From a virus, in the IMG/VR virus record IMGVR_UViG_3300021185_003122, positions 16,260 through 80,259 of that record: a stretch of 64,000 nt of DNA. One strand, given 5' to 3'. The notes under the pieces were generated by a model that saw only the letters and a list, made by a program, of their open reading frames with translations, was not told the DNA's origin and searched no databases. A program made the position numbers and the translations under genes. How positions within the stretch are numbered: position 1 is the stretch's first letter; each line of letters opens with the position of its first letter. Shown here piece after piece: positions 2,022-62,948 of the stretch.

Positions 2022-2453
2022 CTATATAATAGTCTTAAAACTTCTTTTAGAAAGTAAATCTATGTATCTCTTTATAACAGCACACTTCTCATACTCTTCA
2101 AGTTTCTCATAATAGACTCTTAAGTGATCTAAACAGTAATCAACATCCTTCCTATCGAAAGACTCTCCTACCTTGTATATACTATCGAAGTTTGTAGAAT
2201 TAATTCGTGTTAGATAAGAGTATAGCTTATTGTAGTATTTGTACTTAGTAAGGTTTCTTATCTTCTTATAGGGACCTGGATACTGCTTTAGGTACATCAT
2301 ATCCATCATCTGGTAGTTCTCTATGCCTCTGAGTACCATACCCATAAGAACAAAAGGGTTATTGAGGGCATCCTCCATGCCGTGTTCCTTGTAGACTTGC
2401 TCGTCACCTTGCTCAAATATACTAAATAGAGTATTAGGGTCTATTGATTGCAT
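2022..2453 (-). CDS. hypothetical protein
   Basis: 143-aa ORF with CTATTTAT-N4-ATG start; C-terminal EEYEKCA (UVR-like) motif. Confidence 0.7.
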   Translation of the reverse strand: MQSIDPNTLFSIFEQGDEQVYKEHGMEDALNNPFVLMGMVLRGIENYQMMDMMYLKQYPGPYKKIRNLTKYKYYNKLYSYLTRINSTNFDSIYKVGESFDRKDVDYCLDHLRVYYEKLEEYEKCAVIKRYIDLLSKRSFKTII

Positions 2454-10506: not shown

Positions 10507-11034
10507 CTACATCCACTTAATATTTTCATAAAAAGCTACTGATGAATGATGGCAAGGATTAATGTTACCTTCATTCAAATTCATCTTAATATTTAATTTA
10601 CCAGCATTAGGAATAGTTACTTGCTCTCTAAACTTCTTTCTTGTAAATAAAACAACTCCGTTAGGATCAAGAAGAGGAGAATAAAATGCTATGTGAGTAA
10701 ATATATACTTACCGTCTTCATCCTCCTTACATTTAATATTCTGGAAAGACACATACTTACTATCTGGTTTCCAGGAGGTTTTAACTTCTATAGAAACTTG
10801 TCCATCATCACTAAAAACATCGAAGCCATGTTGATTTACTAGAGGAGCTACTTTCATATCTCTTCTAAAGTAATGAGAAGCCCAGTTTTTAATAATTACC
10901 TCAGATAATTTTGGGAGGCCTCCTTCTTTTAATGCATCTCTTGCTTCTTGATCATCTCTTATGTATTTTTCTAGAATAGGTTTAGGAAATCCTAAATCAC
11001 TAGCATACATACTAAGTATCGGTTGCTCTTTCAT
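10507..11034 (-). CDS. PD-(D/E)XK endonuclease-like protein
   Basis: GFDV...IEVKT motif. Confidence 0.55.
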   Translation of the reverse strand: MKEQPILSMYASDLGFPKPILEKYIRDDQEARDALKEGGLPKLSEVIIKNWASHYFRRDMKVAPLVNQHGFDVFSDDGQVSIEVKTSWKPDSKYVSFQNIKCKEDEDGKYIFTHIAFYSPLLDPNGVVLFTRKKFREQVTIPNAGKLNIKMNLNEGNINPCHHSSVAFYENIKWM

Positions 11035-11399
11035 TATATAACCATTTTAAAATTAGATTCTTCTTTAAATGCTGCTACTTCATATGGGTGATTATCATAT
11101 CTATACCCCATACTATAATATCTAGTATACCAAGAAGGAGATTGAAGATAATGCTGATATTCATGAATGATAGTTTCAGCTAAATGCTTCTCATCTTCCA
11201 TATGCTTGTAGTATATAACTATAGTATTATAGTCATGTAACCACTCTGCCTGAGTATCATCATCTCCTGTATATTTAGACTTAAGAGAAGGTTCAAATTC
11301 TATATAAGGAGAACATTCATGGAACTTACTTAGCCCATAATGCTCTACTACTCTTTCTAAAATCTCTTTACTTAATCTTTTTGCTGTACGTAAATGCAT
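11034..11399 (-). CDS. HEXXH metallopeptidase-like protein
   Basis: TIIHEYQHYLQ...PYEVAA; promoter at 11416-11447. Confidence 0.65.
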   Translation of the reverse strand: MHLRTAKRLSKEILERVVEHYGLSKFHECSPYIEFEPSLKSKYTGDDDTQAEWLHDYNTIVIYYKHMEDEKHLAETIIHEYQHYLQSPSWYTRYYSMGYRYDNHPYEVAAFKEESNFKMVI

Positions 11400-11451
11400 A
11401 ACCTTTTATTTATACTAAATATAAGAAAAAAAATTGTAACTAGCAACTTTT

Positions 11452-12627
11452 TTATATTAAATTTGCTGCTTTATTTACTTTCATAAATAATCTATCAATA
11501 ACAGGAGCATGACCACAATTTTCAACACATAAAATACATTTGCCATCTTCTATAGATTTATCCCATCCTTTATAAAAGAAAGAATCAAACGTTTTAAAGA
11601 TATCTGAGTATTCAGTACTGTTTAAGTTTACTTTATCAGGTCCTCCTACTCCTTGAAGTAGTTGATTAGGAATTTCTGAACCAGCAGCATTATCTGCTAG
11701 AGCATATCCTGTATAACAACATGGAAGTAATACTCCGTTAGGAGTAAGGTATAGACCTTTATGCTTATCACTATCAACTTCACATTGAATTGAAGTATTA
11801 TCTAAATGAGAATATTTAGAGTAATCAATATCCATAGGTTTGTATTCAGGAAGTTTATTGTACTTTAAAATTTTATTTACATCAATTGAGTCACTTCCTT
11901 TTTTAATCTTCTTCATGCTTTTAGATAAATGAGATTTAGGAAGAGATATACTATAAACCTTTTTACCTTCTTTATCATATACAGGAGTATCCCATGTAAG
12001 ATTATTAACTTGATCTTCCATACCTAATGATCTTTTAGGAGCAAAAAACTTAAAACCAAGATTAGTAGATAATTTTTTAGCATCATCTATCTGATGTTCA
12101 TTATGTTCAAATGTAATAAAGTCCCACTGAGCTGTTCCACCATTATCAATAAATGCTTTTACATTGTCCATTAGTTTAGACCATTTAACATTTCTTCTAT
12201 AAAGGTGATTAGTATCTTCTAGTCCATCTATTCCAAAAATAACTAAATGAGATTTAAATAATTTAAGATAAGAAGCTAACTCTTTCCAGAATTTAGGATT
12301 ACGATTTCCTCCATTAGAATTAACTGATATGTGCATATCCTTTCTAATATTAGCTACATAACCAATTATATCTAAAATATATGGGTTAGAACAAGGATCT
12401 CCATAGTCTCCACATAATTTTAACTCTTTTACTTTTTTAATTATGTTTGGACCAAGCCATTTATCTAAATTTTCAACAGTTAAGTCTTCTAATTTAAGTT
12501 GAGGATGTTTTACAGGAGTTCCTGGAATAAATCTAGCACATATAGGACAAGCGGCATTACATCTAGTTGTTGCCTCAATATGAATGTAGTATTCTACTTC
12601 TGATCTATTATGGGAATTAGTCCACAT
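11452..12627 (-). CDS. radical SAM protein with C-terminal SPASM/twitch-like domain
   Basis: CNAACPIC motif; C-terminal C...PCC...CILCVENC. Confidence 0.85.
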   Translation of the reverse strand: MWTNSHNRSEVEYYIHIEATTRCNAACPICARFIPGTPVKHPQLKLEDLTVENLDKWLGPNIIKKVKELKLCGDYGDPCSNPYILDIIGYVANIRKDMHISVNSNGGNRNPKFWKELASYLKLFKSHLVIFGIDGLEDTNHLYRRNVKWSKLMDNVKAFIDNGGTAQWDFITFEHNEHQIDDAKKLSTNLGFKFFAPKRSLGMEDQVNNLTWDTPVYDKEGKKVYSISLPKSHLSKSMKKIKKGSDSIDVNKILKYNKLPEYKPMDIDYSKYSHLDNTSIQCEVDSDKHKGLYLTPNGVLLPCCYTGYALADNAAGSEIPNQLLQGVGGPDKVNLNSTEYSDIFKTFDSFFYKGWDKSIEDGKCILCVENCGHAPVIDRLFMKVNKAANLI

Positions 12628-13424
12628 TAATTACTTAGAGGAGCTTTTATAGATGGATGACTTTTGTAATTAATTAAATCTACATCGAAGTCTCCTGTAT
12701 AAATATTAAAGCAAACAACTTTAGCTTCCGGAAGGTCATAAGAATATCTGTCTAATTGCTTTTCTGCTTGCTCTAAATGATTGGTATATAAATGAACATC
12801 TCCAAAGTTGCCTATCAGCTCTCCAGGTTCTAATCTAGTCTCTTTACATAGTAACAACAGTAACAAACCGTAACTACTAATGTTAAACGGTACTCCTAAG
12901 AATAGGTCAGCACTTCTTTGATTCCACATAAGAGAGAGCTTACCATCTGCTACATAACATTGAAAAGAGTAATGGCATGGAGGAAGAGTCATCTTATCTA
13001 AATCTTCTACATTCCAACTATCAACCAAATGTCTTCTACTATCTGGATTGCTTATAATTCCTGTAATCAGATTCTCTAGCTGATCAATACCATTTATGTC
13101 TCTCCATTGCTTACCGTATATAGGTCCTAACTCTCCATCTGTTCTACCAGACTTCTTATAATCACCATCCCATATCTTACAGTTATTATCTTGAAGATAC
13201 TTAATATTAGTATCACCTCTTAAGAACCATTTCAACTCAGTAACCATAGTCTTAAATGCAATCTTCTTAGTAGTCAAGATAGGAAAACCATCTGACATAT
13301 CATGTCTGATTGATGCTCCGAAGATAGATTTAGTACCTGTTCCGGTCCTATCAGTTTTAACAACTCCTCTAGTAAGAACTTGTTTGAGAAGTTTCTGATA
13401 GTCGTTGTCTAAACTATTAGCCAT
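12627..13424 (-). CDS. thyA: thymidylate synthase
   Basis: DRTGTGT, LPPCH, QRSADLFLGVPFN (dUMP-specifying Asn), GDVHLYTNH. Confidence 0.97.
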   Translation of the reverse strand: MANSLDNDYQKLLKQVLTRGVVKTDRTGTGTKSIFGASIRHDMSDGFPILTTKKIAFKTMVTELKWFLRGDTNIKYLQDNNCKIWDGDYKKSGRTDGELGPIYGKQWRDINGIDQLENLITGIISNPDSRRHLVDSWNVEDLDKMTLPPCHYSFQCYVADGKLSLMWNQRSADLFLGVPFNISSYGLLLLLLCKETRLEPGELIGNFGDVHLYTNHLEQAEKQLDRYSYDLPEAKVVCFNIYTGDFDVDLINYKSHPSIKAPLSN

Positions 13425-13605
13425 ATATTAGGACTCTTTCTTGTTTAGCTTCATTTACTAAAGCTCTTTTAAGAGTTTTACCAAAAGGTCTTTTAGATAC
13501 CTGTTCGAAAGTTAATCCCTCTACCGTTATGTGATAGCCAGGAATGACTGATTCAGATATTCTAGCGTTTATTTTAGTTGGGGCTATAAAGTATAATTTT
13601 TGCAT
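13417..13605 (-). CDS. hypothetical protein
   Basis: 62 aa, promoter at 13623-13654. Confidence 0.6.
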   Translation of the reverse strand: MQKLYFIAPTKINARISESVIPGYHITVEGLTFEQVSKRPFGKTLKRALVNEAKQERVLIYG

Positions 13606-13653
13606 AACATTTTATTTATACTCTAATATAGGAATAAATTATATAACATCCAA

Positions 13654-14073
13654 CTATATCAACGAGGAATTTGGTTTAAGTTTAGTCCCCTCAAAGTCAA
13701 AATCTTCTATGCCATACTTATCATATTGATCTAGAGGAAGATTAATTAACTTAGCTACTTCTATATAGTCTACCGTTATTTCTTCATTCTCTTTTATAAG
13801 TTTAGTACTTATTAAGAATATATTATTACCTAGGAGAGACACCTTGCTATTAGGAGAGCTACTATGATTAGCATACCTTGCTATAGGAATAGATTCTATC
13901 CATCCATCATATAGAACTCTACCTTCTATAATAGGAATAAGATCCTTACTTAAATAAAATCCAATATTAGTTTCTGGAATGATGTTATAAGAGGCTAAAA
14001 GTCCTTTACCTCTTGGAGGAGTATCTCCAACTCTAAATAATACTTTTTGCTTGTTCAAAATGCTCTTCTTCAA
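13654..14073 (-). CDS. SET-domain protein (putative lysine methyltransferase)
   Basis: GKGLLA, RYANHSSSPN, IKENEEITVDY. Confidence 0.85.
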   Translation of the reverse strand: MKKSILNKQKVLFRVGDTPPRGKGLLASYNIIPETNIGFYLSKDLIPIIEGRVLYDGWIESIPIARYANHSSSPNSKVSLLGNNIFLISTKLIKENEEITVDYIEVAKLINLPLDQYDKYGIEDFDFEGTKLKPNSSLI

Positions 14074-14623
14074 AAAATATAATTAAAGCATACCTGCTTC
14101 CTTCAGTAACTTCAGTTACTAAATGTTCATAAGTAGGAGGAAACATAATACAGTTACCTAATTCTCTTCCTGCATCTCCATAGGTAGTCATTTTCAAAGT
14201 ACCTCCATTATATTCATCTGAGTCAGATAATTGAGCAGAAAAAGACCTATAGATTATTTGGCTTCCATATTTGGAGAAGTCAACATGCTTTGTTAACTTA
14301 TGACCGATTCCATACTTCATTATTTTGATAGTAGGACAGGAGCTGATGCCCCAATCCTGTAATCTATCTACTATAAAATCTTTGAGTGTTTGGTCTTCGG
14401 TTTCAATCCAAGTAGCGTTACTATCCTTTCGCCATCTTACAATAAGAGTACCATCAGCATTAACTTCTTCTTCTCCAATCTCTCTATTGTACTTAGCTCT
14501 TCCTTGTTTGATAGTATCTACTAAAGTGAGAGTATCATGTCCCTCAACCTCTTTAGAATTATCATAAAAACTTCTTATATACGCACAGTCTTCTGGCGAG
14601 AATAAAACCTTTTGTTGAAACAT
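14033..14623 (-). CDS. 2OG-Fe(II) oxygenase (prolyl-hydroxylase-like)
   Basis: Y...HVD...YNGG...FP...HLVTEVTEGSRY. Confidence 0.85.
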   Translation of the reverse strand: MFQQKVLFSPEDCAYIRSFYDNSKEVEGHDTLTLVDTIKQGRAKYNREIGEEEVNADGTLIVRWRKDSNATWIETEDQTLKDFIVDRLQDWGISSCPTIKIMKYGIGHKLTKHVDFSKYGSQIIYRSFSAQLSDSDEYNGGTLKMTTYGDAGRELGNCIMFPPTYEHLVTEVTEGSRYALIIFFEEEHFEQAKSII

Positions 14624-14626
14624 ATA

Positions 14627-14767
14627 TTACGAATGCTTAGCCTTGAAGTAAGTAATAAAGTTATTTAAGATACTAGCAGATTGAGTTTTCTTATCAGAAG
14701 CAGGTTCTGTAATACTTCTCTGCTGTACGTCTGTTTTCCAATTAAATGTTTTATATACGTTTGGCAT
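14627..14767 (-). CDS. small protein (46 aa)
   Basis: MPNVYKTFNWKTDVQQRSITEPASDKKTQSASILNNFITYFKAKHS fills the gap between neighbours. Confidence 0.65.
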   Translation of the reverse strand: MPNVYKTFNWKTDVQQRSITEPASDKKTQSASILNNFITYFKAKHS

Positions 14768-14769
14768 AA

Positions 14770-16986
14770 TTATACTAATTTATGATTTACTTTAAGGTCT
14801 TGTCTGTTGAATACTTCGTTAAGAGAGTCATTATCACCTAATCCTGATACTATATGACCATCAACTATAAAGTTGTGCTCACTTTCGAATAGCTTATCAC
14901 CATCTACTTCTAGGTTGTACCAGTTAGTAATATACATTTGCTCTACCTCTCCTACCTTATCTAGTGTAGTCCAGTTATTATCTACTAATACTGGGTGTTG
15001 AGGTTCTCCAATCATATTCTCTGTCTTAACTACATCTACTACTGCTTCAGTTGGGTGAACTAATGCTTTAGTAACTATACCTTCGACAAACTCTCCATTT
15101 CTAAATGATTTTACTTTATCTCCTTCTACTACTTCTCCAATTGGTTTAGTAGTTCCATCAAACATCTCTACTTGAGAATCGTAAGTAAAACATTTCCAGT
15201 TATGTACTAAGTATCCGTTAGCATAGAAATTATAGTTATCAGCAACGTCATCTAATCTATATACAGTTACTTCTCCTTCTTGAACTTCTATTCCTTTTAC
15301 TTCTACTTCGTTATTGTCTTTAGATACTAATTTATCTCCTTCTGTTAAGTCTTGAGCAACTGTCCAGCCTTTTCCAGCAACATATAATCTATGAAGAGGA
15401 GTAGAAATAATCTCATCTCCTTCTAGAGTTACCTTAATAACTTTATCTACTTGACTTGACTTAACACTTCCTACTGTAGCTGGCTCTCCTTCTCCTGTTT
15501 TTTCATTCCAAGATAAAAGCTCATCTCCTGATACTACATCTTCGATGTTTTTAGTATCTCCATTAGATAGAGTAATTACTGTACCTGCAGGGAAACAGTT
15601 GTGAGTTACAATCTTCAAGTGAGTGTTTTCATCTGCAAGGAAGAATGTATCTGTAGTTTCCATATCTACAACGTGTACATTATATGATCCGCTTAATACT
15701 TCAGCTTCATTACTAGCAATTGGAACTAATGAACCAGAACTATTAATTAATGAATGGACAGCTGGATCAACATCTACTAATGTTTCATACTTTAACTTAT
15801 TAGAACCTGACTCATGTACTAAGATAGCAGATGCTCCTGATATTCTAATAGGTCCACTTCCTGATGGTGTTAAGTTAAAGATAATTCCATATGGTAATGA
15901 AAGCTCTACGTTATTAATAAGAACTGAGCTAGTAATGTAAGAACCAGAAGGTAAATCTGAACCTGCATGTTCCCATTCTAGATATTCTGTAGCAACATCA
16001 CTATCAGGTGAACCTGAAATGAAATATGATTTAAATGTATCACTTACAGCTGCTCCTGAAATAGCTACGATAGTTCCATCATCTTTTACTAATTCTTCTT
16101 CTTCAAATATTCCACCGTAATCAGTTCCTACACCAAATACTGGAGTGTTAGTTGCAAATTCAAAGTAATGTTGATTACCAAATTGATGAGCTAATTGAGA
16201 GTCAGAAGCATCTGTAGAAGTTGGTTTTTCTAGAACTGCTTCAGTTTCTGTGTATGCAAGAATGCTTTGCGATAAAGCTGTACCATAAACAACACTGTAT
16301 AATCTAGTTGATACTGCTTTACTTCCAGAAACATTTTCGTAATAATTTTGAATTAATGAATTACCATCCTTAATTTCATCAATAAAATTAGTATATCTAT
16401 CATCTGAACCAGAAGTAGAATGACCAATCTTATAAAACTTTAATGGTTGGTACATAGTAGTAGTTGTATCTTTAACTACAATGTCAGGCATGTTAGATGA
16501 ATTAAAAGTTCTATCTAAAGTATCTACTACTCCTTCTGAAGAAGAATAGTAATAAGATGCTGCTGATCCTGAATCATTATTGTCATAAAATAATTCTAAT
16601 ATGTTTAGATTATTTTTTGCGTATGTACTGTCTAAGATTGCTGCTTCATCATATGCCAGTCTTAAAATAAACTTACTATCACTATCCGAAATAGATGTAG
16701 GATAGATAGTAGTTCCTTCTTCAATAGTTTTATTGAAGGTTAATGCTGAACCAGTATAGTCTGATGCTATACTAGATGAGAAGTGATTTACAAAGTCAGT
16801 TTGATGATCTTTGTAAACTACATGAATCTCAGTAATATTGTTTGAGTCCCATACTGGGTATAGGGATGAATAGTCGAAATGCGTAAAGGCAGCTGATGCA
16901 ATACCTGTATCAGTGTTTATTTCTAAAAGCCTTAGGTTATCCGAACTATCTGTTGCAAAGTCTGCTGAAAATAAGGTACCTTTCAT
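14770..16986 (-). CDS. multi-Hint (intein-like) protein with ATP-grasp-like N-terminus
   Basis: THN|C464FPAGT...STPLH...LVHN596; WK; C599FTYDS...QHP...IVSG; N-terminal DF...LLEINTD. Confidence 0.8.
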   Translation of the reverse strand: MKGTLFSADFATDSSDNLRLLEINTDTGIASAAFTHFDYSSLYPVWDSNNITEIHVVYKDHQTDFVNHFSSSIASDYTGSALTFNKTIEEGTTIYPTSISDSDSKFILRLAYDEAAILDSTYAKNNLNILELFYDNNDSGSAASYYYSSSEGVVDTLDRTFNSSNMPDIVVKDTTTTMYQPLKFYKIGHSTSGSDDRYTNFIDEIKDGNSLIQNYYENVSGSKAVSTRLYSVVYGTALSQSILAYTETEAVLEKPTSTDASDSQLAHQFGNQHYFEFATNTPVFGVGTDYGGIFEEEELVKDDGTIVAISGAAVSDTFKSYFISGSPDSDVATEYLEWEHAGSDLPSGSYITSSVLINNVELSLPYGIIFNLTPSGSGPIRISGASAILVHESGSNKLKYETLVDVDPAVHSLINSSGSLVPIASNEAEVLSGSYNVHVVDMETTDTFFLADENTHLKIVTHNCFPAGTVITLSNGDTKNIEDVVSGDELLSWNEKTGEGEPATVGSVKSSQVDKVIKVTLEGDEIISTPLHRLYVAGKGWTVAQDLTEGDKLVSKDNNEVEVKGIEVQEGEVTVYRLDDVADNYNFYANGYLVHNWKCFTYDSQVEMFDGTTKPIGEVVEGDKVKSFRNGEFVEGIVTKALVHPTEAVVDVVKTENMIGEPQHPVLVDNNWTTLDKVGEVEQMYITNWYNLEVDGDKLFESEHNFIVDGHIVSGLGDNDSLNEVFNRQDLKVNHKLV

Positions 16987-17028: not shown

Positions 17029-17370
17029 TTAGGCAAATAAATGACGAATCCATGCAATTAATCCATTAATATTTAATGCAACCAAGTTCCATTGCTTTCT
17101 AGAAGCTGTTTGAATCATTACACAGACGAATCCTATAATATAAAATATAGGTTCTATAGTCCATTGAGCAGCTATTAAGAATCCTGTTCCCATATAGCCT
17201 ACCCTTGAAGCAAACTTCTCATATGAAGATAGTTTACGTCTATATGATAAATATCTTAAAAATGATCGATACCAACGAAACTCACACTGAGAGCAGGTGA
17301 GCTTTTTTGGAGTCTTGAAGTGTTTTTCAAGCTTTAGTTTATTACATTTGTTACATTTACGCTTAACCAT
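17029..17370 (-). CDS. hypothetical protein (CxxC pairs and C-terminal TM)
   Basis: 113-aa ORF. Confidence 0.6.
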   Translation of the reverse strand: MVKRKCNKCNKLKLEKHFKTPKKLTCSQCEFRWYRSFLRYLSYRRKLSSYEKFASRVGYMGTGFLIAAQWTIEPIFYIIGFVCVMIQTASRKQWNLVALNINGLIAWIRHLFA

Positions 17371-17506
17371 ATATGTTAATATAGCACTTTTTACACAATT
17401 GACCAGCGCCTTCTACATAAAAGTTTCTAAAGTGTATATTAGTACCTCTTGTATATTCTGTATCTTCCCAACAGGTAACACATTTTTCAAAAGTATCTGG
17501 TATCAT
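17363..17506 (-). CDS. small Zn-binding hypothetical protein
   Basis: CVTC...YVEGAGQLCKKC; start probably MIPD at 17506. Confidence 0.55.
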   Translation of the reverse strand: MIPDTFEKCVTCWEDTEYTRGTNIHFRNFYVEGAGQLCKKCYINIYG

Positions 17507-17534
17507 ATCTTCATCTATGTAATGAGCTCCTGAA

Positions 17535-17699
17535 CTACACATCGCAGTCTTCTTTATGTTTACTAAACCATCCTCCACACTTACATTTAATCCAGTAAGT
17601 CGTAGTAGCTATTAATGGTGAAGCAGCAGCGGCAGTCCAAATGTTTGGGTGCCAATGCTCTCCACAAAATCCTAACGTATGTCTTATAACTTCTACCAT
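17535..17699 (-). CDS. small hypothetical protein (54 aa)
   Basis: MVEVIRHTLGFCGEHWHPNIW...; TAATG coupling to the DUF932 gene. Confidence 0.55.
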   Translation of the reverse strand: MVEVIRHTLGFCGEHWHPNIWTAAAASPLIATTTYWIKCKCGGWFSKHKEDCDV

Positions 17700-18541
17700 T
17701 ATACTAATGCTGTAGCTAACTTAAACAACTCTTTATTTACTTTCATATCCTTCTCAAAGGATTTGATCTTTCTAACCTTTCTAACTTTAGCACCTCTCAA
17801 TGCAGCATGAAACTCTCCTTGAGTAATCTTCTCTTGAACTACATTGAAGACTCTCCAAAGGTCATCTCCTTTATCAGCATCTCTTTTAGGGTCTAAAATA
17901 TCTTCTATAGTTTCAGCATCATAATCAAACTTGGTAGCTTCTTCACTGCCTGGAGTAATATTAGCTCTAATTAACATAGCATCTAAAGCTAGTTTATTCT
18001 TCTCTTCTTGAGTAAGAACTCTATCCTTCATATCATTCATAACCTTAACCTTATTAGGAAGATCAGCTACAGCTTGATTGACTACGCCTCTCAACTCATC
18101 AAACGTATAACCTTTATGCTTAATCTTAAAGTCACTAAACTGTTCATCAGCAACAACTAAACCATTAGAACATACTAATCTAAATATACCAACGCTAAAC
18201 TTAAACGCTTGCATACCATCATGAGAGTTAGTCATAATAATTCTAGGAAAAGAATCATCACCGTCACTACCTTTAATTTTAATCTCAGGGTTCTGGAAAG
18301 CAATCATATGCTTACTAAATATAGTACCATTACCTCTGCCTTTTCTTTGAGCAGCTTGAACCGGTTTCCAACCTAACTTATCTAAATCATCTATAATCGT
18401 TTCAGTATTAACGAATAGATATCTTTTACTAACATCTGGGTTAGTAGGAGCCTCAGCGAACGCTAGAGGACAAACTTCTTTTAATTGTTCCTTACTCATA
18501 TAATCTTGAGCACTATTGAAACTTAACATAACATCTGACAT
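17699..18541 (-). CDS. DUF932/DUF945 family protein
   Basis: NSHDG...FRLVCSNG...LWRVFNVVQE; promoter at 18565-18596. Confidence 0.85.
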   Translation of the reverse strand: MSDVMLSFNSAQDYMSKEQLKEVCPLAFAEAPTNPDVSKRYLFVNTETIIDDLDKLGWKPVQAAQRKGRGNGTIFSKHMIAFQNPEIKIKGSDGDDSFPRIIMTNSHDGMQAFKFSVGIFRLVCSNGLVVADEQFSDFKIKHKGYTFDELRGVVNQAVADLPNKVKVMNDMKDRVLTQEEKNKLALDAMLIRANITPGSEEATKFDYDAETIEDILDPKRDADKGDDLWRVFNVVQEKITQGEFHAALRGAKVRKVRKIKSFEKDMKVNKELFKLATALV

Positions 18542-18603
18542 AACTTATTTATTTTTATTTATTATTAATATACGAATTATCTTTGTAACTACCAACTAAT
18601 TGA

Positions 18604-19344
18604 CTAACTTTCTGCACCTATAGTACCTTGCCAGCCAACTCTATTTCTATTCTGTAAGCTAAATAACCTTACAGACATATCTCCTCCTCTACGATTTTTA
18701 GAGAAGTAAAAGGTTCTTTCACCTTCTTTAGTCCATTCCATATGAGCCATTCCAGTCATCATATGTTTGAATCTATTACTTCCGGCAAACTCTCCACCTT
18801 TAGTAACTTGCTGAATAACTAGAAATGCAGTATTGATATTAGCATCGTTTTCACCTAAGTTATGTTTTTCGAATAAATTAAGTAATTCAGTTTCAGCTTT
18901 TTTAGATGACATCCATCCTTTGTGAGTATCTACTATAGCATTTTGAACCTCAGCCATAGAGTCAATTAGAACAACATCCCATCCTTTTGACAGAATATCA
19001 TTACATACATCTAAGGCATTCTCTTCAGCATAGTCACCCATAAATAAAATAGGAAGATCACCAAACTTAGGATATCTTTTCACATACCCGTACATATCTA
19101 TGCTATTCATCTCTCCGGAAATAAACAGTACCTTCTTACCTTGCTTTTCTAAGTCAGCTAACATATCCATCATAACAGTAGTCTTTCCTATTCCAGGATC
19201 ACCTACGATAGCATAGTTAGTTCCTTTCATCAAACCTCCTTGTGATGAAAAATGTGAATCAACGATTCGTCCTGATTTCATTGGACGAAATAGAGAAGGA
19301 TCGAATGTTACGTCCTTCATTTTTACAGTACTAATTGTTTTCAT
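18604..19344 (-). CDS. RadA/Sms-like P-loop ATPase
   Basis: GDPGIGKT, ISGE, LIDS, QVTKGGEFAG, KNR. Confidence 0.85.
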   Translation of the reverse strand: MKTISTVKMKDVTFDPSLFRPMKSGRIVDSHFSSQGGLMKGTNYAIVGDPGIGKTTVMMDMLADLEKQGKKVLFISGEMNSIDMYGYVKRYPKFGDLPILFMGDYAEENALDVCNDILSKGWDVVLIDSMAEVQNAIVDTHKGWMSSKKAETELLNLFEKHNLGENDANINTAFLVIQQVTKGGEFAGSNRFKHMMTGMAHMEWTKEGERTFYFSKNRRGGDMSVRLFSLQNRNRVGWQGTIGAES

Positions 19345-19394: not shown

Positions 19395-20654
19395 TTAACT
19401 GACTATTTTAATAAATTTTCCACCTGAGTATTTCCATTTTATATTATTAGAGAAATCATTTGAAGTAAAATAAATTTCTCCATCCTTATTATAAATGGAC
19501 ATCCAATAGATCCATCCCCTTTGTGGATTATCAACATAAGATCTTGCTTCATTGACTCCATAATCAAAATAGTTAAAAGTAACATCAGTCAATGTTGCTC
19601 CATCTATGACTTGAATAAATGTACTTTCATAAAATGGATCTATTTGAGTTCTAGTTAAAAATATTTCCATTATATTATCTCCATTCATATCATAAAAATC
19701 TATATCAGTTATAACACTCCAAGGAGATAGAGATGGAAGCTCTATTATATCATGATAACCTTCTGATGAGCCTTTAATAATAACAGATGGGGTAACGTCT
19801 CCTCCTAAGTAATCTTGTTCATGACCTGCTAGAAATATATCATTATATCCATCATTGTCATAATCAACTATCTCAGTAGAAAATTTCATCTGGAATTTAT
19901 ACTTATCATCATTACCTCCTATATAGTTATAGAATAAAATATTATTATTATCATAAGAATCATAAGTTTCTTGCCTTAACGGAACTAAATCGAAACTACC
20001 TCCATTATTATAAAGAATGTAAGACTTATCTATTCTAGGAGCTAAAGCAAGAATATCTAAATCACCATCGTTGTCTAAATCTCCTGAAGCAGTAGAATGA
20101 AAATATCCTATGTTACTTTCATATCTAGTTTCTGTAAAAGTACCGTCTCCATTATTCATAAGAAGTACATTATGCTCTCCAGGCCAAGGTTCGTAATCTA
20201 ATCCAGTACCAGCAAAAAACATATCAGGATAAGAATCTGAATTAAAGTCATTGACTATGCCTTTCCTACCATGAACTAATCCATTGAATGAACCAGGAGA
20301 GTAATTTGTACTGAAGGTATTGTCTTTGTTGCCTTTTAAAAATAGAAACTTATTAACATTAGTAGTACCGTAATCAGAGTTACTATCAACTATATCTAAT
20401 ATTCCATCATTATCAAAATCAAGCATAACTGCATCCAAAGGAGGACTCCAATTAGAAAACTCTCTGTAATTATAATCTACTTCCGGAAGCGGAATAGAAG
20501 TAAAGTAAGACGGTTTAGAATAATCTATATTAAAATTATCTATTAGTTTATTTTCTATTGGTATTGGAGTAGGAGTAGGAAGAGGTTCATAAACATCTTC
20601 TTTACTACATCCAATTAGAAAAATTAATATTATAGAAGTTAAAAATTTATTCAT
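19395..20654 (-). CDS. FG-GAP/VCBS repeat lipoprotein
   Basis: LIGC lipobox; repeated DxDxDGxxD motifs. Confidence 0.8.
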   Translation of the reverse strand: MNKFLTSIILIFLIGCSKEDVYEPLPTPTPIPIENKLIDNFNIDYSKPSYFTSIPLPEVDYNYREFSNWSPPLDAVMLDFDNDGILDIVDSNSDYGTTNVNKFLFLKGNKDNTFSTNYSPGSFNGLVHGRKGIVNDFNSDSYPDMFFAGTGLDYEPWPGEHNVLLMNNGDGTFTETRYESNIGYFHSTASGDLDNDGDLDILALAPRIDKSYILYNNGGSFDLVPLRQETYDSYDNNNILFYNYIGGNDDKYKFQMKFSTEIVDYDNDGYNDIFLAGHEQDYLGGDVTPSVIIKGSSEGYHDIIELPSLSPWSVITDIDFYDMNGDNIMEIFLTRTQIDPFYESTFIQVIDGATLTDVTFNYFDYGVNEARSYVDNPQRGWIYWMSIYNKDGEIYFTSNDFSNNIKWKYSGGKFIKIVS

Positions 20655-42849: not shown

Positions 42850-44727
42850 TTAAAAACTTAATCTACCTCCAATCATAAAGTTTACCATAGTAGGAAAATC
42901 TTTTATAGTGGCATCGATTACAGTTGTTCCTAATGTTAACCCAAATCTTTGAGTAAACATATAATTAAAATTTGTTCCTCCTATAACCATTACATCTGTA
43001 TTCCAAGTTGTATCATAATTAGTTAAACTCTGAGTAATAAATGGAGATGATACAGCTACCATAGGACTAATAGTTAATCTATCATTGTATTTAAAAGACT
43101 TAGTAGCAAAACCAGTTAATGAACCAGCAAGCACTATGTCATCATAGTATATGTATCCTTCTCTTACATCAAGTTCTACAGATGTTATAGTAGTTCCTAA
43201 TGCAAATCCACCTACTAGACCTTTCTTACCTAAAAATACTAGTGAATGGTTCATAGTACCCATATAGGATGTAAACATTTTCATCCCTCCTACAGCGGCT
43301 GAATATACTCTGTTAACTCTTCCTTCATCATTTACATGAACTCTAGAATAATTAAGGTTTAACATAAACTGTTCTAAATTGTCATACACCATTAAGTTAG
43401 CACCAAATGTTTCAGTACCTAGCAAAGTAGTCTGGCTTATGCCGAACATTGTAGCATAGGAATATTTTCCGTCAACTCCTTGTTGAGATAGTACGTTAGC
43501 GGCAAGGACTGGAGGAGCAAAAGCTCTTTTTTTCTTTTCATCCTCATCATCTTCCTCTTCGTCTTCGTTTGAAGTTTCTTCTTCTTCGCTTTCTTCCTCA
43601 TCATCCTCAGATTCTTCTTCGTCAGACTCCTCTTCATCTGATTCTTCTTCACTGTCCTCTTCTGACTCCTCGTCTGATTCTGATTCTTCTTCTGACTCTT
43701 CTTCTGATTGTTCTTCATCTGATTCTTCGTTTTCTGATTCTTCTTCGGTTGACTCTTCTTCAGTGGATTCCTCCTCTGTAGATTCTTCTTCTGTAGTTTC
43801 ATCTGATTCAGATTCACTTTCACTTTCAGTTTCTGATTCAGATTCACTTTCAGTACTATCATCAGATTCACTCTCTGTAGATTCACTTTCACTTTCTGAT
43901 GATTCTGATTCTGTGCTTTCACTTTCGGTACTTTCTGATTCAGTAGATTCAGTTTCAGTTGATTCTGTTTCTGTTGATTCAGTTTCAGTACTCTCTGTAG
44001 ACTCGGTACTTTCTACTTCTGTAGATTCTGATGAACTTTCTTGAGACGTTTCTTGCGAGCTTTCTCCGCCAGATGACGTTTCGGATGAAGAAGCTTCTGT
44101 AGACGTTTCTGTACTTTGCGTTTCTGTTGAAGCAGTTCCTTCAGTACTAGTTGTGTCTGGTTGCGAACTCCCCTGGCTCGATTCAGTTGTTGTGGGTTGT
44201 GATGTAGACGTATCAGGAGTACTCGTGTCTGGTGTTGATGTAGTTGTATCCGGTACGCTAGTATCAGGAGCCGAAGTCGTAGTATCTGGAACAGTAGTCG
44301 TAGGTGCTTCAGTAGTAGCGGGAACGTTAACATTAGTAGATGTTGCATCGGGTATAGTATTTGTCGTAGCAGTTTGATTCGCAACGTTAGTAGCATTAGC
44401 TGCTGCTTCTGTAGCCTGCTGCGTGGTTTGTTGAGTTTGTTGAGTTGTATTTACTACAGTACCTCCAGTAGTTGAACATGGACTAAGAGCATTCCACCAC
44501 AGCCAGGTTTCTTCTAGCCATGCTTGTAATTCACCATTTTGGAATTCTGCTGCTGTAAATGTACGGGACTTGTTATAGAATGCTACAACAGTCTGTCCAT
44601 TCATAGGTACACTAAATACAGAGACTGCTCCTGTACACCTATCTACATAGGTTTGGATCAGGGCCTGTGAGTAGGCCCGACCCATCCCCATCGCAGTAAT
44701 TACTATAATTAATAGCAACCTTCTCAT
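42850..44727 (-). CDS. secreted protein with T/S/E/D-rich stalk and C-terminal beta-rich (OM barrel-like) domain
   Basis: Signal peptide, about 300-aa low-complexity region, amphipathic strands ending in terminal Phe. Confidence 0.7.
   Translation of the reverse strand: MRRLLLIIVITAMGMGRAYSQALIQTYVDRCTGAVSVFSVPMNGQTVVAFYNKSRTFTAAEFQNGELQAWLEETWLWWNALSPCSTTGGTVVNTTQQTQQTTQQATEAAANATNVANQTATTNTIPDATSTNVNVPATTEAPTTTVPDTTTSAPDTSVPDTTTSTPDTSTPDTSTSQPTTTESSQGSSQPDTTSTEGTASTETQSTETSTEASSSETSSGGESSQETSQESSSESTEVESTESTESTETESTETESTETESTESESTESESTESESSESESESTESESDDSTESESESETESESESESDETTEEESTEEESTEEESTEEESENEESDEEQSEEESEEESESDEESEEDSEEESDEEESDEEESEDDEEESEEEETSNEDEEEDDEDEKKKRAFAPPVLAANVLSQQGVDGKYSYATMFGISQTTLLGTETFGANLMVYDNLEQFMLNLNYSRVHVNDEGRVNRVYSAAVGGMKMFTSYMGTMNHSLVFLGKKGLVGGFALGTTITSVELDVREGYIYYDDIVLAGSLTGFATKSFKYNDRLTISPMVAVSSPFITQSLTNYDTTWNTDVMVIGGTNFNYMFTQRFGLTLGTTVIDATIKDFPTMVNFMIGGRLSF
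43540..44300 (-). repeat. coding low-complexity repeats (PDT, TESTE, ESE, EEES)
   Basis: Degenerate gattca and ttcttc units. Confidence 0.75.
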
Positions 44728-44732
44728 AACAA

Positions 44733-45512
44733 TTAGTGATCAAAAATTCCTTTTCGTATCATTCTCTTCACTATCTTTGCGACTGCAGTCTCTAATGCTT
44801 TTCGAGTAGATACACCCACTGAGGAGGAATTGAATTTTACTTCATCTAAATTGTCTGAGTTAGTTAAGGTTAGCTCTCTAGTAGTAATTGCTTTACCTAA
44901 TCCTGATCCGGTCATATAAAGGCCAGTTTCAGAATCAACTGCTCTGATTTGTAGTCCTAGTCTGGTAACTAGTTTGTTTTTAATCCCATCTTTAAGATTT
45001 ATAGTTTCATCTTCTGATACAGAGTAGTCATATACTTCAACATAAATAAAATATTTAGCTAAAGTAATGTTACCTTTGATATCGATATCATTAGCTGTAA
45101 ATCCTTTTTGGGATGCTTTATATTGAGTCACCATTCTATTCTTGATTTCATCTCGAGTTTCGACAAATTCGAATCTCCAAGTTTCGTCAAGGAATGCTAC
45201 AGTAATGTTAGTCAGACCTAAACCTACTCTATTATCCCTTAATTCAGGATATTGGTTTAGAACGTCTTCTGTAACTCCAATATTAAGGAGAGCTACTGGT
45301 ACTGGATCACCATCATATTCTGGTATTGAGTATAACGAGGCTTGTTTCTCAAAATCCGCCTGATAATCCTCTGTAGTAGTCTTTCCTATTTGTTGTGCCG
45401 ATATAGAAGTACTAAATAATAGTAGTACTAATAATCTTTTAACCAAGGGTATCGAAGATGCCCCAAGTTGCGTTGTCAAATGTAGCTGGGTTAGTAACAA
45501 GTTCCCATACAA
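44733..45512 (-). CDS. CsgG/HfaB-like protein
   Basis: Signal-like KRLLVLLLFSTSISAQ (real start about 45446); VALL...RFEFVE...LGLQIRAVDSETG...ALETAV. Confidence 0.6.
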   Translation of the reverse strand: MYGNLLLTQLHLTTQLGASSIPLVKRLLVLLLFSTSISAQQIGKTTTEDYQADFEKQASLYSIPEYDGDPVPVALLNIGVTEDVLNQYPELRDNRVGLGLTNITVAFLDETWRFEFVETRDEIKNRMVTQYKASQKGFTANDIDIKGNITLAKYFIYVEVYDYSVSEDETINLKDGIKNKLVTRLGLQIRAVDSETGLYMTGSGLGKAITTRELTLTNSDNLDEVKFNSSSVGVSTRKALETAVAKIVKRMIRKGIFDH

Positions 45513-45654
45513 TAGTAGAAAATCCTACTAAAAATAGAGAAGATAGTGTTAAAAACCAGGCTGCAAAAAATAATACTAAACTTTTTCGTGTAAAAGTTGT
45601 AGCTTCGAGATATTCTTCTTTTATTAAAGAATAAGGGTTTACGTAATTGTTCAT
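45439..45654 (-). CDS. small membrane protein
   Basis: 71 aa, single TM. Confidence 0.6.
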   Translation of the reverse strand: MNNYVNPYSLIKEEYLEATTFTRKSLVLFFAAWFLTLSSLFLVGFSTIVWELVTNPATFDNATWGIFDTLG

Positions 45655-45690
45655 AGTTTCAATTTTAATGGTTACAAATTAATTCTTATC

Positions 45691-45724
45691 GGAGCCGATA
45701 GTTGCCGCTATCGGTTCCTTTTTT
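45691..45724 (+). terminator. strong hairpin/terminator
   Basis: GGAGCCGATAG-TTGCCG-CTATCGGTTCC followed by T6 on the plus strand. Confidence 0.5.
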
Positions 45725-45738
45725 CTACTGCGATATAA

Positions 45739-46029
45739 CTACCAATCTAAACCTGCCTTCTTCCTTTTTTCGGTTTCAGTAAGTTTAGGTTTGGCTTTAA
45801 TAAACACCTTCTTTACGACGGTATCTTTCTTTTGTTCCGGAATAGTAATATTGATTGTAGGGCCTTCCACATTAACGTTTTGTTCTTGCTTAACCTCTAC
45901 TGCCGAATCATCACTTTCTACTCCGAAAAACTCTTCTACTTTATCTGTAAAAACTGTACCTAAAGTTGTAAGTACAATTGCTACACCTGCAGTTATCTGA
46001 GCCTTAACGTTTTTTAATAGATTTTTCAT
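45739..46029 (-). CDS. hypothetical membrane-anchored protein
   Basis: 96 aa, N-terminal TM. Confidence 0.65.
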   Translation of the reverse strand: MKNLLKNVKAQITAGVAIVLTTLGTVFTDKVEEFFGVESDDSAVEVKQEQNVNVEGPTINITIPEQKKDTVVKKVFIKAKPKLTETEKRKKAGLDW

Positions 46030-62621: not shown

Positions 62622-62948
62622 CTAATCTTCTTCAAATCCTACTGGTGGTTCCTGTTCTACTACTGCAAGTACTTCTCTATCAGAGGCAATATAGTACTCT
62701 TCTCCTTCAAAGTCTATTCTTAACGTACCAATCTTAGGTACTAAAATTATATCCCCTACTTTACAAGAACGTACGTGATTAATAACTCCTGTAGCAGTCC
62801 AAGCTCCTGGTCCTACTGCTAGTACTTGGCCCATCTCAGGCTTTTCTTTTCCCATATCAGGGATAACTATTGAACCATATGTCTGTTCACCTTCATCAAT
62901 AGGTTTTAACAGTATACGATCGTTAGTTGGTTTTAATTGTTTTGCCAT
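62622..62948 (-). CDS. groES: co-chaperonin GroES
   Basis: LKPTNDRIL, AVGPG; promoter at 62966-62997. Confidence 0.95.
   Translation of the reverse strand: MAKQLKPTNDRILLKPIDEGEQTYGSIVIPDMGKEKPEMGQVLAVGPGAWTATGVINHVRSCKVGDIILVPKIGTLRIDFEGEEYYIASDREVLAVVEQEPPVGFEED

Follow-up and report, generated by a model that had tools for sequence, protein, structure and literature searches.

A large uncultured phage, represented by an IMG/VR record, carries a gene for a 738-aa protein in which a predicted ATP-dependent ligase is followed by three tandem Hint domains. We consider it about an even chance (roughly 0.5) that the product of this gene is the catalytic core of a modification enzyme specific to phages, one that would mature by cutting off its own tail and operate as a holoenzyme of the ligase and a 46-aa "clamp" encoded next to it. 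The gene lies in a window of 64,000 nucleotides, meaning the whole stretch of DNA analyzed (positions 16,260 to 80,259 of record IMGVR_UViG_3300021185_003122), and its features are collected in Table 1. A chance ORF is ruled out by the existence of more than 780 homologues with the identical layout. What is new here is a large virus-restricted family with a near-universal His-Asn end to its core, zero to three orthologous Hints (in distant members an S74 match instead) behind that core, a partner gene, a 2OG oxygenase neighbor, and an end-tag on neighboring proteins. The last four of these features constrain the function best. Our literature search found no paper on an ATP-grasp ligase fused to Hint domains.

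Table 1. Features of the ligase-Hint locus, in window coordinates, and the basis for each.
Feature	Position	Strand	Basis
Whole ORF, 738 aa plus stop (ATP-grasp, Hint-1, Hint-2, Hint-3)	14770..16986	(-)	more than 780 homologues with the same layout; full-length model pLDDT 83.7
Predicted minimal circularly permuted ATP-grasp ligase domain, residues 1-282	16141..16986	(-)	structural alignments, D..ExN motif, invariant columns
Hint-1 (predicted fold), residues 285-463	15598..16134	(-)	fold match to 2lwy, 1at0 and 6y75; ends H462-N463
Hint-2, BIL-type mini Hint, residues 464-596	15199..15597	(-)	C464, T529-x-x-H532, H595-N596, Trp at +1
W-K linker between Hint-2 and Hint-3, residues 597-598	15193..15198	(-)	length and sequence variable in orthologues
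Hint-3, Vint-type, residues 599-715	14842..15192	(-)	C599, H664; S714-G715 at the canonical His-Asn position
Tail of the Vint-type Hint, residues 716-738	14773..14841	(-)	motif L-G-D-N..L-N....R-Q..; short predicted helix 720-726
46-aa partner gene	14627..14767	(-)	start almost directly 3' of the Hint-gene stop codon (14770-14772)
2OG-Fe(II) oxygenase, P4H/PKHD type, ends ...K-S-I-I	14033..14623	(-)	Pfam 2OG-FeII_Oxy_3, 8.6e-8
SET-domain protein, ends ...S-S-L-I, looser neighbor	13654..14073	(-)	Pfam SET, 7.7e-8
Radical SAM enzyme, ends ...A-N-L-I, looser end-tagged neighbor	11452..12627	(-)	PHROG radical SAM, 3.3e-17

An earlier note on this DNA, made from its letters, had likened the N-terminus of the protein to circularly permuted ATP-grasp ligases and the segment behind it to a degenerate Hint domain, and structure prediction recovered both folds in the model of residues 1-463 (pLDDT 88.6, pTM 0.85). 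By VIA Z-score, the predicted head aligned to glutathione synthetase (GS), YgiC, and GspS at 8.7-9.5 (5oeu, 9.5; YgiC 7uka, 9.4; GspS 2io7, 8.7) and to 9cjn at 8.0. All four of these permuted ligases aligned from model residue 1 onward, with GspS pairing model residues 1..282 with chain residues 310..608, whereas unpermuted ATP-grasps, and RimK-type chains likewise, reached Z 5-6 only, with the unpermuted alignments beginning at about residue 50. The N-terminal stretch ...A-D9-F...L-L-E22-I-N24-T-D, in which the earlier note had seen a D...ExN motif, bore out that resemblance. D9, E22, and N24 aligned with D318, E330, and N332 of GspS (E. coli gss sequence), which we take to be its Mg-binding residues. 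Moreover, the ligase domain has about 30 invariant columns, mostly polar (45-115 sequences), including D9, E22, N24, K59, R109, Y112-D113-E114, D119, N162, D168, K172, and R228.

Profile searches saw none of this. Pfam and PHROGs placed residues 1-463 in no family, with Pfam returning nothing even at E-values up to 1; GSP_synth and CP_ATPgrasp were among the ATP-grasp models that failed to recognize the head. Against PDB sequences, a profile built from 45 N-domains drew only chance matches (E near 0.8-0.9), and a protein atlas comparison gave an uninformative top score of 0.79. The ATP-grasp assignment thus rests on a predicted fold at middling Z together with one motif; within those terms, there is strong support for the head being an amide ligase of the GS/GspS/YgiC structural type, a minimal and circularly permuted ATP-grasp with its Mg/ATP motif intact. 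The head has the fold order of eukaryotic glutathione synthetase, E. coli GspS and YgiC, trypanothione synthetase, and fungal Cp1B (Z 8-9.5), and its D..ExN motif stands at the same place as in GspS. In contrast to these enzymes, it is far smaller (282 aa versus 370-600 aa), is without detectable sequence-profile similarity to them, carries Ser7 where GspS has R316, has a Hint domain fused to it, and would, by prediction, depend on a 46-aa clamp. Cp1B acts in E-64 biosynthesis beside an Fe/2OG oxygenase (PMC12568646); a close analogy to that pathway was considered and set aside, the resemblance being structural and distant (Z 8.0).

The segment behind the head is strongly supported as a Hint domain that has lost its N-terminal nucleophile and block-B His and kept a C-terminal His-Asn, as far as the predicted model allows. 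In that model, Hint-1 matched the Clostridium thermocellum BIL 2lwy at Z 17.8 (rmsd 1.6 Å over 138 residues), Hedgehog 1at0 at Z 16.3, and BIL2 6y75 with a Foldseek E-value of 1.7e-8, while more than 25 inteins, BILs, and Hog domains matched at Z 12-17. An invariant Gly292 occupies the Cys1 position, leaving block A without its nucleophile, much as the earlier note had proposed in describing residues of about 292-463 as a Hint lacking C1. The block-B His is missing as well, the sequence at T352 reading T-S-S-V, and the block-F acidic residues D441, E443, and D446 are conserved. Asp446 stands where inteins carry the block-F His, and Asn cyclization by Hint-1 is only putative. The core, meaning the ligase plus Hint-1, has a terminal His-Asn in 254 of 261 proteins, regardless of what comes next. 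The suggestion that the +1 residue of Hint-1 is at the same time the C1 of Hint-2 holds for the protein of the window (N463 followed by C464) and fails as a family feature, the residue after the core's Asn being Cys in only 132 of 254 proteins and something else in the other 122.

Class 2 inteins such as Mja KlbA (2jnq), which are without an N-terminal nucleophile, resemble Hint-1 (Z 14.3) in their Gly at position 1 and terminal His-Asn, and in the window's clade also in a Cys at +1. Hint-1 differs from them in that the block-B His is gone, in that +1 is a non-nucleophile in almost half of the family, and in that, by prediction, it contributes to a stable interface with the clamp. For these same reasons, the idea that Hint-1 is a class 2 intein that splices itself out was rejected.

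Hint-2 has every residue that had been read from the sequence, namely C1, TxxH, the terminal HN, and Trp at +1, and Pfam PT-HINT covers residues 464-596 at 42.5 bits (cut-off 27.7; 1e-10). Its fold is that of A-type BILs, with Z 21.7 and 24% identity to BUBL BIL2 (6tmm; the same domain as 6y75) and Z 21.1 and 29% identity to C. thermocellum 2lwy; at 133 aa, with Cys1, T-x-x-H, a terminal His-Asn, W597 at +1, and no endonuclease insert, it has the features by which that type is defined. BIL domains without a +1 nucleophile mainly undergo cleavage (PMC7664689), and BIL2 of the Tetrahymena BUBL locus makes a Lys isopeptide without ATP (PMC8616854). By analogy, cleavage or acyl transfer, rather than clean splicing, would be the expected outcome for Hint-2 (PMC7664689, PMC8616854), and its sequence features agree with the earlier view that cleavage is likelier than canonical splicing. 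The phage BIL differs from known ones in its setting: known BILs belong to variable proteins of bacteria (surface proteins or toxins) or lie between ubiquitin-like domains, whereas this one comes after a ligase and a Cys-less Hint, has a further Hint behind it, and carries next to no C-terminal cargo.

Two residues after Hint-2, Hint-3 begins at C599 and ends in IVSG with no Asn, as had been described, and Pfam assigns residues 599-719 to Vint (57.2 bits against a cut-off of 27; 2.3e-15). It also matches the Tetrahymena Vint 8r2c at Z 14.6 (rmsd 2.5 Å over 124 residues). C599 and H664 are invariant, and the C-terminal splicing motifs are absent, block G reading G-H-I-V-S714-G715 where canonical Hints have G-I-L-V-H-N. 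Vint-type Hints in general keep motifs A and B alone (PMC2362128). The subtype recurs in 33 of 254 proteins of the family, and its tail motif is seen again in many clades. Hedgehog/Hog and Vint proteins (1at0, 8r2c) are comparable in having N-terminal chemistry only (Cys1 and the block-B His) and a short conserved tail, and Hedgehog also in carrying its cargo on the N-terminal side of the Hint. The phage protein differs from them in its viral context, in the replacement of the block-B Thr by Glu in the window's clade, in a tail of about 23 aa that is not of sterol-recognition size, and in having neither VWA/Vwaint nor Hedge domains; the VWA-Vwaint-Vint order of eukaryotes does not apply, with no VWA domain found by Pfam and a ligase plus two Hints lying upstream.

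Taken as a whole, the protein departs from a canonical (class 1) intein. Trp stands at +1 of Hint-2, Hint-3 has no terminal Asn, and the Pfam Intein_splicing match (30.8 bits) falls under the cut-off of 35.8. Moreover, what occupies the "C-extein" position in the family is a variable linker or a single Lys and not a conserved half of a host protein. The Hints are small, and Pfam finds no homing-endonuclease domain in the 738-aa protein, in keeping with the earlier note. Given the conserved catalytic residues, self-processing of the protein is plausible.

Abundant in aquatic viromes and carried on phage contigs of up to 326 kb, the family falls into 242 clusters at 50% identity and into more than 780 at 90%. 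When 50,697 deposited phage records were searched by tblastn, the whole protein returned only Hint-only matches, in four gut phages, and neither the ligase domain alone nor the 46-aa peptide alone returned any match. A search of 185,579 species genomes gave, among the matches listed, one 2.8-kb contig of a Cyanobium-labeled MAG that is probably viral. From these sequence searches, and among the matches listed, the family appears to be virus-restricted and practically absent from cellular genomes. Public records call its members only "hypothetical" or "intein/homing endonuclease".

What trails the core varies in number, and in every case it is either a short tail or a module of a self-cleaving kind. 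An HMM tally of 254 proteins counted no Hint behind the core in 18, one in 61, two in 156, and three in 19, with the Hint-less forms ending in HN-K, HN-AKEEV, and others. In proteins with two trailing Hints, the first unit matched another first unit in 134 of 156 cases, and the two in the window are only 26% identical to each other, so the trailing Hints are positional orthologues and not recent duplicates. In four distant members (P0213, P0245, P0251, and P0257), a Peptidase_S74 match takes the place of the Hints, always at the C-terminal end, although its scores of 16.4-18.8 bits are below the Pfam cut-off of 22; three of the four (P0213, P0251, and P0257) have an S74-like start, S-D-[LV]-[NS]-x-K-[KE]-[DN]-[VI]. 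The S74 chaperone domains of phage tail fibers and endosialidases are likewise self-cleaving C-terminal modules that are removed once their job is done, but their fold and chemistry (a Ser-Lys dyad) are unrelated to those of Hints, and the window's protein has none.

Directly downstream of the ligase-Hint gene, a 43-49-aa homologue of the 46-aa partner was found in 78 of 80 loci (51 distinct sequences), synteny here being taken from IMG/VR loci. Tyr5 of the partner is invariant, Lys6 and Phe37 are nearly so, and the basic C-terminal end is conserved. Prediction of the complex of core and partner gave an ipSAE of 0.85, against 0.00 for the best of three controls; of 80 solved complexes, 58 attain the mark applied, as do 2 of 110 mismatched pairs, counts that carry over only roughly to this case, where custom alignments were used and ATP/Mg was included. 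The runs had at least 94% of their contacts in common, with a partner pLDDT of at least 90. In the predicted complex, the N-terminal strand of the partner (Tyr5-Lys6) lies on the Hint-1 strand 428-431 and its C-terminal helix packs on the ATP-grasp domain, such that the partner is predicted to clamp the two domains together. Core residues 294 and 296, adjoining the position-1 Gly of Hint-1, are in the predicted interface; putative catalytic residues are not named in it and their strand neighbors are, residues left unnamed being uncertain. Instead of being a subunit, the 46-aa peptide may serve as a substrate. Among its homologues, no conserved acceptor/donor pair was found in the variable middle.

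Beyond the partner, a 2OG oxygenase homologue is present in 53 of 79 loci, mostly directly after the small partner gene. The window's SET copy has a blastp homologue in only 6 loci; SET families with the same end-tag recur at other loci, and the tagged radical-SAM family is found in related loci.

The reading that we favor would bring these parts together as follows. Hint-1 would cyclize Asn463, aided by an N-S acyl shift at Cys464, and so cut the chain after residue 463; Hint-2 would cut between N596 and W597; and the Vint-type Hint-3 would form a thioester at K598-C599 only. If the three Hints act in this way, the trailing ones would be self-removing appendages, and the mature product would be a 52-kDa ligase-Hint-1 core with its bound clamp. 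This holoenzyme would then activate a carboxylate with ATP and join it to an amine on some peptide, protein, or metabolite, working alongside the co-encoded 2OG hydroxylase and other tailoring enzymes with K-x-L-I-like ends. That the Hints are merely disposable is, at the same time, hard to square with their retention in about 93% of the proteins and with their old positional orthology.

Hint domains are known as inteins, as the lipid-transfer modules of Hedgehog-type proteins, as BILs that release toxins, and as an ATP-free ubiquitin dispenser. In the phage family, structure prediction suggests that one has turned into a fixed part of an ATP-dependent ligase, and we propose that further Hints (or S74) serve as self-removing tails. 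The near-constant 46-aa partner and the end-tagged tailoring enzymes point to a whole viral modification pathway. Working out this pathway could reveal a further enzymatic role for the Hint fold that is new, supply protein engineering with compact modules that cleave themselves and ligate, and account for the many orphan 2OG oxygenase genes in marine phages.

Several other readings deserve weighing against this one. The Hints could act as a Hedgehog- or BUBL-like acyl-transfer device, activating the carbonyl with which the core ends, as a thioester (N463-C464 or K598-C599) or as a succinimide (N463). A specific nucleophile would capture it, one candidate being Lys6 of the clamp and another some target in host or phage, with the result that the ligase core becomes covalently attached in a step needing no ATP. 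The best structural matches of Hint-1 and Hint-2 include BUBL BIL2, the ATP-free isopeptide former (PMC8616854). Hint-3 is Vint/Hog-like with N-terminal chemistry only, and its conserved tail of about 23 aa could serve as an adduct-recruiting region; Tyr5-Lys6 of the clamp is predicted to lie on Hint-1, with core residues 294 and 296 near the position-1 Gly also in the interface; and the old positional orthology of the Hints argues for a role past disposal. However, of 254 proteins, 18 are without a trailing Hint and 122 without a Cys at core +1, so a thioester at N463 cannot be a universal step, and the conserved ATP-grasp site is given no role; we regard this device as possible but unlikely. 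Much the same must be said of a RiPP-like pathway in which the 46-aa product is the precursor handled by the ligase through leader-like contacts and is then tailored by the 2OG, SET, and radical-SAM neighbors. The order of ligase, small peptide, and oxygenase is kept in most loci, the neighbors are classic tailoring enzyme types, and the peptide is predicted to bind by a strand and a helix, which is how leader peptides bind in graspetide and microviridin systems. Yet the peptide conserves only anchor-like residues (Y5, K6, F37, and the basic C-terminal end), with no conserved Thr/Ser/Lys and Asp/Glu cross-link sites of the graspetide/microviridin kind; putative catalytic residues go unnamed in the predicted interface, uncertain as unnamed residues are; and the ligase is of the GS/GspS type and not the RimK/MdnC type of graspetides, RimK-type chains aligning at Z 5-6.

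It is also conceivable that the trailing Hints are selfish or neutral mini-intein/BIL cassettes that have piled up in a permissive ligase C-terminal tail, one already closing with a Hint-like His-Asn, and do nothing for the phage. Their copy number runs from 0 to 3 among relatives, they are small and without endonucleases, and they sit exactly at the tail, and a protein stripped of them would end much as the Hint-less forms do (HN-K, HN-AKEEV). Such cassettes, though, having neither a +1 nucleophile nor a homing endonuclease, could not move or splice cleanly, and positional orthology together with low within-protein identity marks them as old and maintained. Their presence in about 93% of proteins, despite the size constraints on phage genomes, and S74 at the same position in distant members (as matches below the Pfam cut-off), which points to selection for a self-removing appendage, make the cassette reading distinctly improbable. 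Least credible, and in our estimation highly improbable, is the ordered polyprotein that the earlier note had envisaged, with tiny peptides (WK) between the Hints as functional outputs. A cut between N596 and W597 and hydrolysis of the K598-C599 thioester would formally free W-K, but the linker ranges in orthologues from 1 to about 13 unrelated residues (K, WK, FKY, FKY plus a Gly-rich stretch, or a Pro/Gly-rich stretch of about 13 residues) and is missing altogether from one-Hint and no-Hint forms; a defined WK dipeptide product was rejected on this ground. A broader proposal, and to us a quite unlikely one, is a viral platform for modifying proteins or peptides, of a kind so far undescribed, in which the permuted ligase and Hint acyl intermediates (a thioester or succinimide at Asn463) jointly link molecules covalently, e.g., via Tyr5-Lys6 of the clamp, and in which a shared C-terminal K-x-L-I tag either brings tailoring enzymes (2OG hydroxylases, SET methyltransferases, radical-SAM enzymes, and glycosyltransferases) to the platform or marks them for processing there.

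A K-x-L-I-like C-terminal end is, in any case, common to the neighboring tailoring enzymes. Ile is the last residue in 32% of co-oriented neighbors, a 3.9-fold enrichment, and the end-tag occurs in about 15 families, among them 2OG oxygenases, radical SAM enzymes, SET proteins, and a glycosyltransferase. A codon artifact of ATGA stop/start overlaps was rejected as its sole cause, such overlaps being present in only 120 of 355 tagged genes and the tag being bimodal by family, and AT-rich gene junctions could contribute part of its strength. As regards the platform proposal, GS/GspS-like ligases activate substrates of the kind that the free carboxylate of the K-x-L-I tag represents.

Four folds are strongly supported by modelling in the 738-aa product of the ligase-Hint ORF (see the table), namely a ligase head (residues 1-282), Hint-1 (285-463), Hint-2 (464-596) and Hint-3 (from C599). 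These bear out the four domain calls of the earlier note, and the residues it named are all present in the ORF (D9, E22-I-N24, C464, T529-P-L-H532, H595-N596, W597-K598 and C599). The Pfam Hint models match at 464-596 (PT-HINT, 1e-10) and 599-719 (Vint, 2.3e-15) and nowhere else in the ORF, residues 1-463 (here, the core) have no Pfam match whatsoever, and Pfam finds no endonuclease domain in the protein.

The core was modelled from a 115-row alignment (pLDDT 88.6, pTM 0.85). In structural comparisons of this model, the head superposes from its first residue on circularly permuted ATP-grasp ligases, including a GS-like protein (5oeu, Z 9.5), YgiC (7uka, Z 9.4), GspS (2io7, Z 8.7), and Cp1B (9cjn) and Mfla_0391 (Z 8.0). 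In contrast, alignments with unpermuted ATP-grasps (LysX/ArgX, RimK, TTLL and Ddl; Z 5-6) begin only at about residue 50, a late start that is expected under circular permutation. Moreover, the ATP-grasp motif of the head is intact. In a comparison with E. coli gss, taken from the K-12 genome, G-R316-M-D318-F...E330-Y-N332-A-D-S aligns with phage S7-A-D9-F...E22-I-N24-T-D-T with one indel, in agreement with the superposition, where model residue 1 corresponds to chain residue 310. Alignments of 45-115 sequences reveal about 30 invariant, mostly polar columns in the ligase domain (among them D9, E22, N24, K59, R109, Y112-D113-E114, D119, N162, D168, K172 and R228), a pattern that we read as that of an active enzyme.

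Foldseek (E 1.7e-8) and an independent aligner concur that the predicted model of Hint-1 has a Hint fold, with matches to the Clostridium thermocellum BIL domain 2lwy (Z 17.8, rmsd 1.6 Å, 138 residues), Tetrahymena BIL2 (Z 17.6) and Hedgehog 1at0 (Z 16.3). Because an invariant Gly292 occupies the Cys1 position, the block-B His is absent, and D441, E443, D446 and T447 are conserved in a block-F-like V-D-M-E-T-T-D-T-F-F-L, the domain looks, from its sequence, like a Hint retaining only the C-terminal (Asn) chemistry. In the full-length model (pLDDT 83.7), Hint-2 resembles BIL2 (Z 21.7, 24% identity) and 2lwy (Z 21.1), and the structure nearest to Hint-3 is the Tetrahymena Vint domain 8r2c (Z 14.6 over 124 residues). 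The two domains are 26% identical to each other, and block G of Hint-3 is G-H-I-V-S714-G715, as against G-I-L-V-H-N in canonical Hints.

The small partner gene next to the ligase-Hint gene is clearly conserved. Among 80 related viral loci, on contigs of up to 326 kb, 78 carry an ORF of 43-49 aa that starts at most 60 nt past the ligase-Hint stop, and its 51 distinct sequences have in common an invariant Tyr, an adjacent and nearly invariant Lys, a central Arg/Lys and a C-terminal F..F.K.K-H-x end. When the core was modelled with ATP, Mg and the 46-aa protein, ipSAE was 0.85 (runs of 0.83, 0.88 and 0.85) and that of the best of three controls 0.00; the mark applied is attained by 58 of 80 solved complexes and 2 of 110 mismatched pairs, a calibration that is rough for a prediction with its own alignments and ligands present. 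The runs had at least 94% of contacts in common, with a partner pLDDT of at least 90, and this confident predicted complex supports binding of the core by the peptide. Peptide residues 3-8 are predicted to pair with Hint-1 strand 428-431, and the peptide helix (about 30-41) to lie against ligase helix 129-142 and strand residues 10 and 20; Hint-1 residues 294 and 296, beside the position-1 Gly, would also make contact. The interface list holds strand neighbours 8, 10, 12, 23, 227 and 229 and lacks the putative catalytic D9, E22, N24 and R228, absence from the list marking a residue as uncertain rather than excluded. With the putative catalytic residues unlisted and their neighbours listed, the peptide would cover the back of the sheet and bridge the ligase and Hint-1 domains, presumably as a clamp subunit and not a substrate in the active site.

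Relatives of the core number more than 780 when clustered at 90% identity (242 clusters at 50%), and every match begins at residue 1 in both proteins. Length classes are about 460-475, 600-650, 730-790 and 900-935 aa; one 935-aa member, P0171, has an insertion of ~190 aa separating the ATP-grasp domain from Hint-1. Of 261 proteins, 254 have a core that terminates in His-Asn, strongly supporting this ending as universal in the family. In these 254, the Hints trailing the core, counted by HMM, number none in 18 proteins, one in 61, two in 156 and three in 19. Directly behind the core Asn, 132 of them have Cys and 49 Ala, and Pro, Leu, Tyr, Ser, Ile and Val account for most of the others. Hint-less forms keep His-Asn and add a tail of 1-13 residues. 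A canonical ...V-H-N with at most four further residues, usually a single Lys, ends 192 of the proteins, and 33 have the end seen in the window, S-G-L-G-D-N...R-Q. In 134 of 156 cases, the first of two Hint units pairs with the first of two from another protein, and Vint-type ends match Vint-type ends in 23 of 27. Since units thus match those at the same position, sequence comparison indicates that the trailing Hints are positional orthologues and that their ordered layout is old. The linker between Hint-2 and Hint-3 varies among relatives, which disfavours the dipeptide product (WK) proposed in the earlier note.

In four distant members (P0213, P0245, P0251 and P0257), a Peptidase_S74-like intramolecular-chaperone domain takes the place of the Hints, scoring 16-19 bits in each, just under the 22-bit cut-off; its diagnostic start, S-D...K-x-N-I, is visible in all three sequences read. 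As Hints and S74 are unrelated self-cleaving modules at the same position, we argue that selection favours having a self-removing appendage behind the core. P0251 and P0257 also possess a Cys-rich stretch of 60-90 aa ahead of the S74-like domain, a stretch that cleavage at its two ends would release. Other distant members (P0240, P0246, P0254-P0256, P0259 and P0260) have nothing behind the core His-Asn except 30-85 aa of Cys-rich sequence that Pfam does not recognise, and such tails may be a released cargo peptide.

Proteins encoded near the module often share a C-terminal tag. The tag was examined in 950 distinct ORFs of the related loci, all co-oriented and 80 aa or longer. Of their products, 32% end in Ile (3.9 times its internal frequency), 28% have Leu as the penultimate residue (3.4 times) and 27% have Lys at position -3 (3.5 times), and [ST][LIVM][ILV] forms the end of 14%, versus 0.7% for this tripeptide class internally. 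On many enzymes of tailoring type close to the module the tag is K-x-[LI]-[IL]-like, in the window as in loci L002-L081. The tag is bimodal by family, occurring in at least 60% of members in about 15 of the 60 larger families and never in many co-located ones. Among the tagged families are 2OG oxygenases, radical-SAM enzymes, SET methyltransferases, a GT64/GT2-like glycosyltransferase and several without a Pfam match. An ATGA stop/start overlap was ruled out as the whole cause, since only 120 of 355 tagged genes have one. Ligases of the GS/GspS type act on a free C-terminal carboxylate, as established for glutathione synthetase and GspS, and this makes a link between tag and ligase an attractive idea, by analogy.

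Features of the window (minus sign, minus strand)
Feature	Coordinates	Strand	Detail
Ligase-Hint ORF	14770-16986	-	738 aa
Partner (clamp) gene	14627-14767	-	46 aa; its first base immediately follows the ligase-Hint stop codon
Tagged genes	11034-14623		
121-aa protein adjoining module			tagged
2OG oxygenase			tag ...K-S-I-I
SET protein			tag ...S-S-L-I
Radical-SAM enzyme			tag ...A-N-L-I
Tag occurrence	2022-2453		
Second tagged run	53342-56199		five consecutive genes
Further tagged gene	59917-60684		
Small protein	13417-13605		62 aa
Small protein	17363-17578		71 aa
DUF932 protein and RecA/KaiC-like ATPase	17699-19344		upstream of module; DUF932 5.2e-32
FG-GAP repeat protein	19395-20654		419 aa; Pfam FG-GAP_3, 3.1e-15
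ORF at GC rise	42850-44727		625 aa
GC rise	44001-46000		GC up to 0.38
Phage GroEL	60961-62619		
Gene adjoining GroEL	62622-62948		108 aa

We give about even odds to the proposal that a self-trimmed ligase-Hint-1 core, together with its clamp, performs ATP-dependent amide ligation in a pathway with the hydroxylase and the other tagged enzymes. Asn463 would cyclise and cut off everything behind the core, assisted by an N-S acyl shift of Cys464 where that residue follows. Hint-2, a BIL without a +1 nucleophile, would mainly cleave at both of its own ends, as is known for such BILs (PMC7664689), and Hint-3 would make an N-terminal thioester only, as Hog domains and Vint-type Hints do (for the latter, PMC2362128). 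The mature product would then be the core plus clamp.

Three main rivals are conceivable. The activated Asn463 carbonyl could instead be captured by a specific amine, such as Lys6 of the clamp, in a BUBL/Hedgehog-like acyl transfer, and BIL2 does form Lys isopeptides without ATP (PMC8616854). A RiPP-like system would make the 46-aa product the substrate, a role less in keeping with its presumed position on the back of the sheet. Finally, the Hints could be selfish cassettes, to be weighed beside the selection argued for a self-removing tail.

The individual parts of the ligase-Hint protein are known folds. Literature searches turned up no account of ATP-grasp domains fused to Hints, nor of tandem BILs in phages. 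What appears to be undescribed is the way the folds are combined, along with the C-terminal-only Hint inside an enzyme, the obligate putative clamp, the self-cleaving tail that can be exchanged and the set of tagged enzymes; the system as a whole stands a real chance of being new. Public records name the members 'hypothetical protein' or 'intein/homing endonuclease'. Neither ligase domain nor peptide was found in 50,697 deposited phage records, and the matches listed from 185,579 species genomes scanned included one short MAG contig only.

The source virus record is 80 kb, with a CheckV completeness of 45%. A scan of the minus strand of the window (GC ~32%) gave 96 ORFs of 60 aa or more, none of them nested; for the plus strand, no ORF of 120 aa or longer is listed, and tRNA genes were not found. 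Where GC rises, GC skew is near zero, and elsewhere GC is ~0.32 with negative skew; the 625-aa ORF there matches nothing in Pfam or PHROGs. The phage GroEL shares 65% identity with its counterpart in 160-kb Flavobacterium myophages (vB_FspM_immuto), a likeness that hints at a Bacteroidota host, and the adjoining 108-aa gene could be a co-chaperonin. A homologue of the P4H/PKHD-type 2OG-Fe(II) oxygenase occurs in 53 of 79 loci, mostly directly after the small gene, and none of the remaining window neighbours recurs in more than 17. DUF932 homologues are found in 15 related loci, and the FG-GAP protein begins with what resembles a lipoprotein signal (L-I-G-C at around residue 16). Finally, the 62-aa and 71-aa proteins, the latter Cys-rich, both end in I-Y-G and have homologues in 17 and 11 related loci, respectively.
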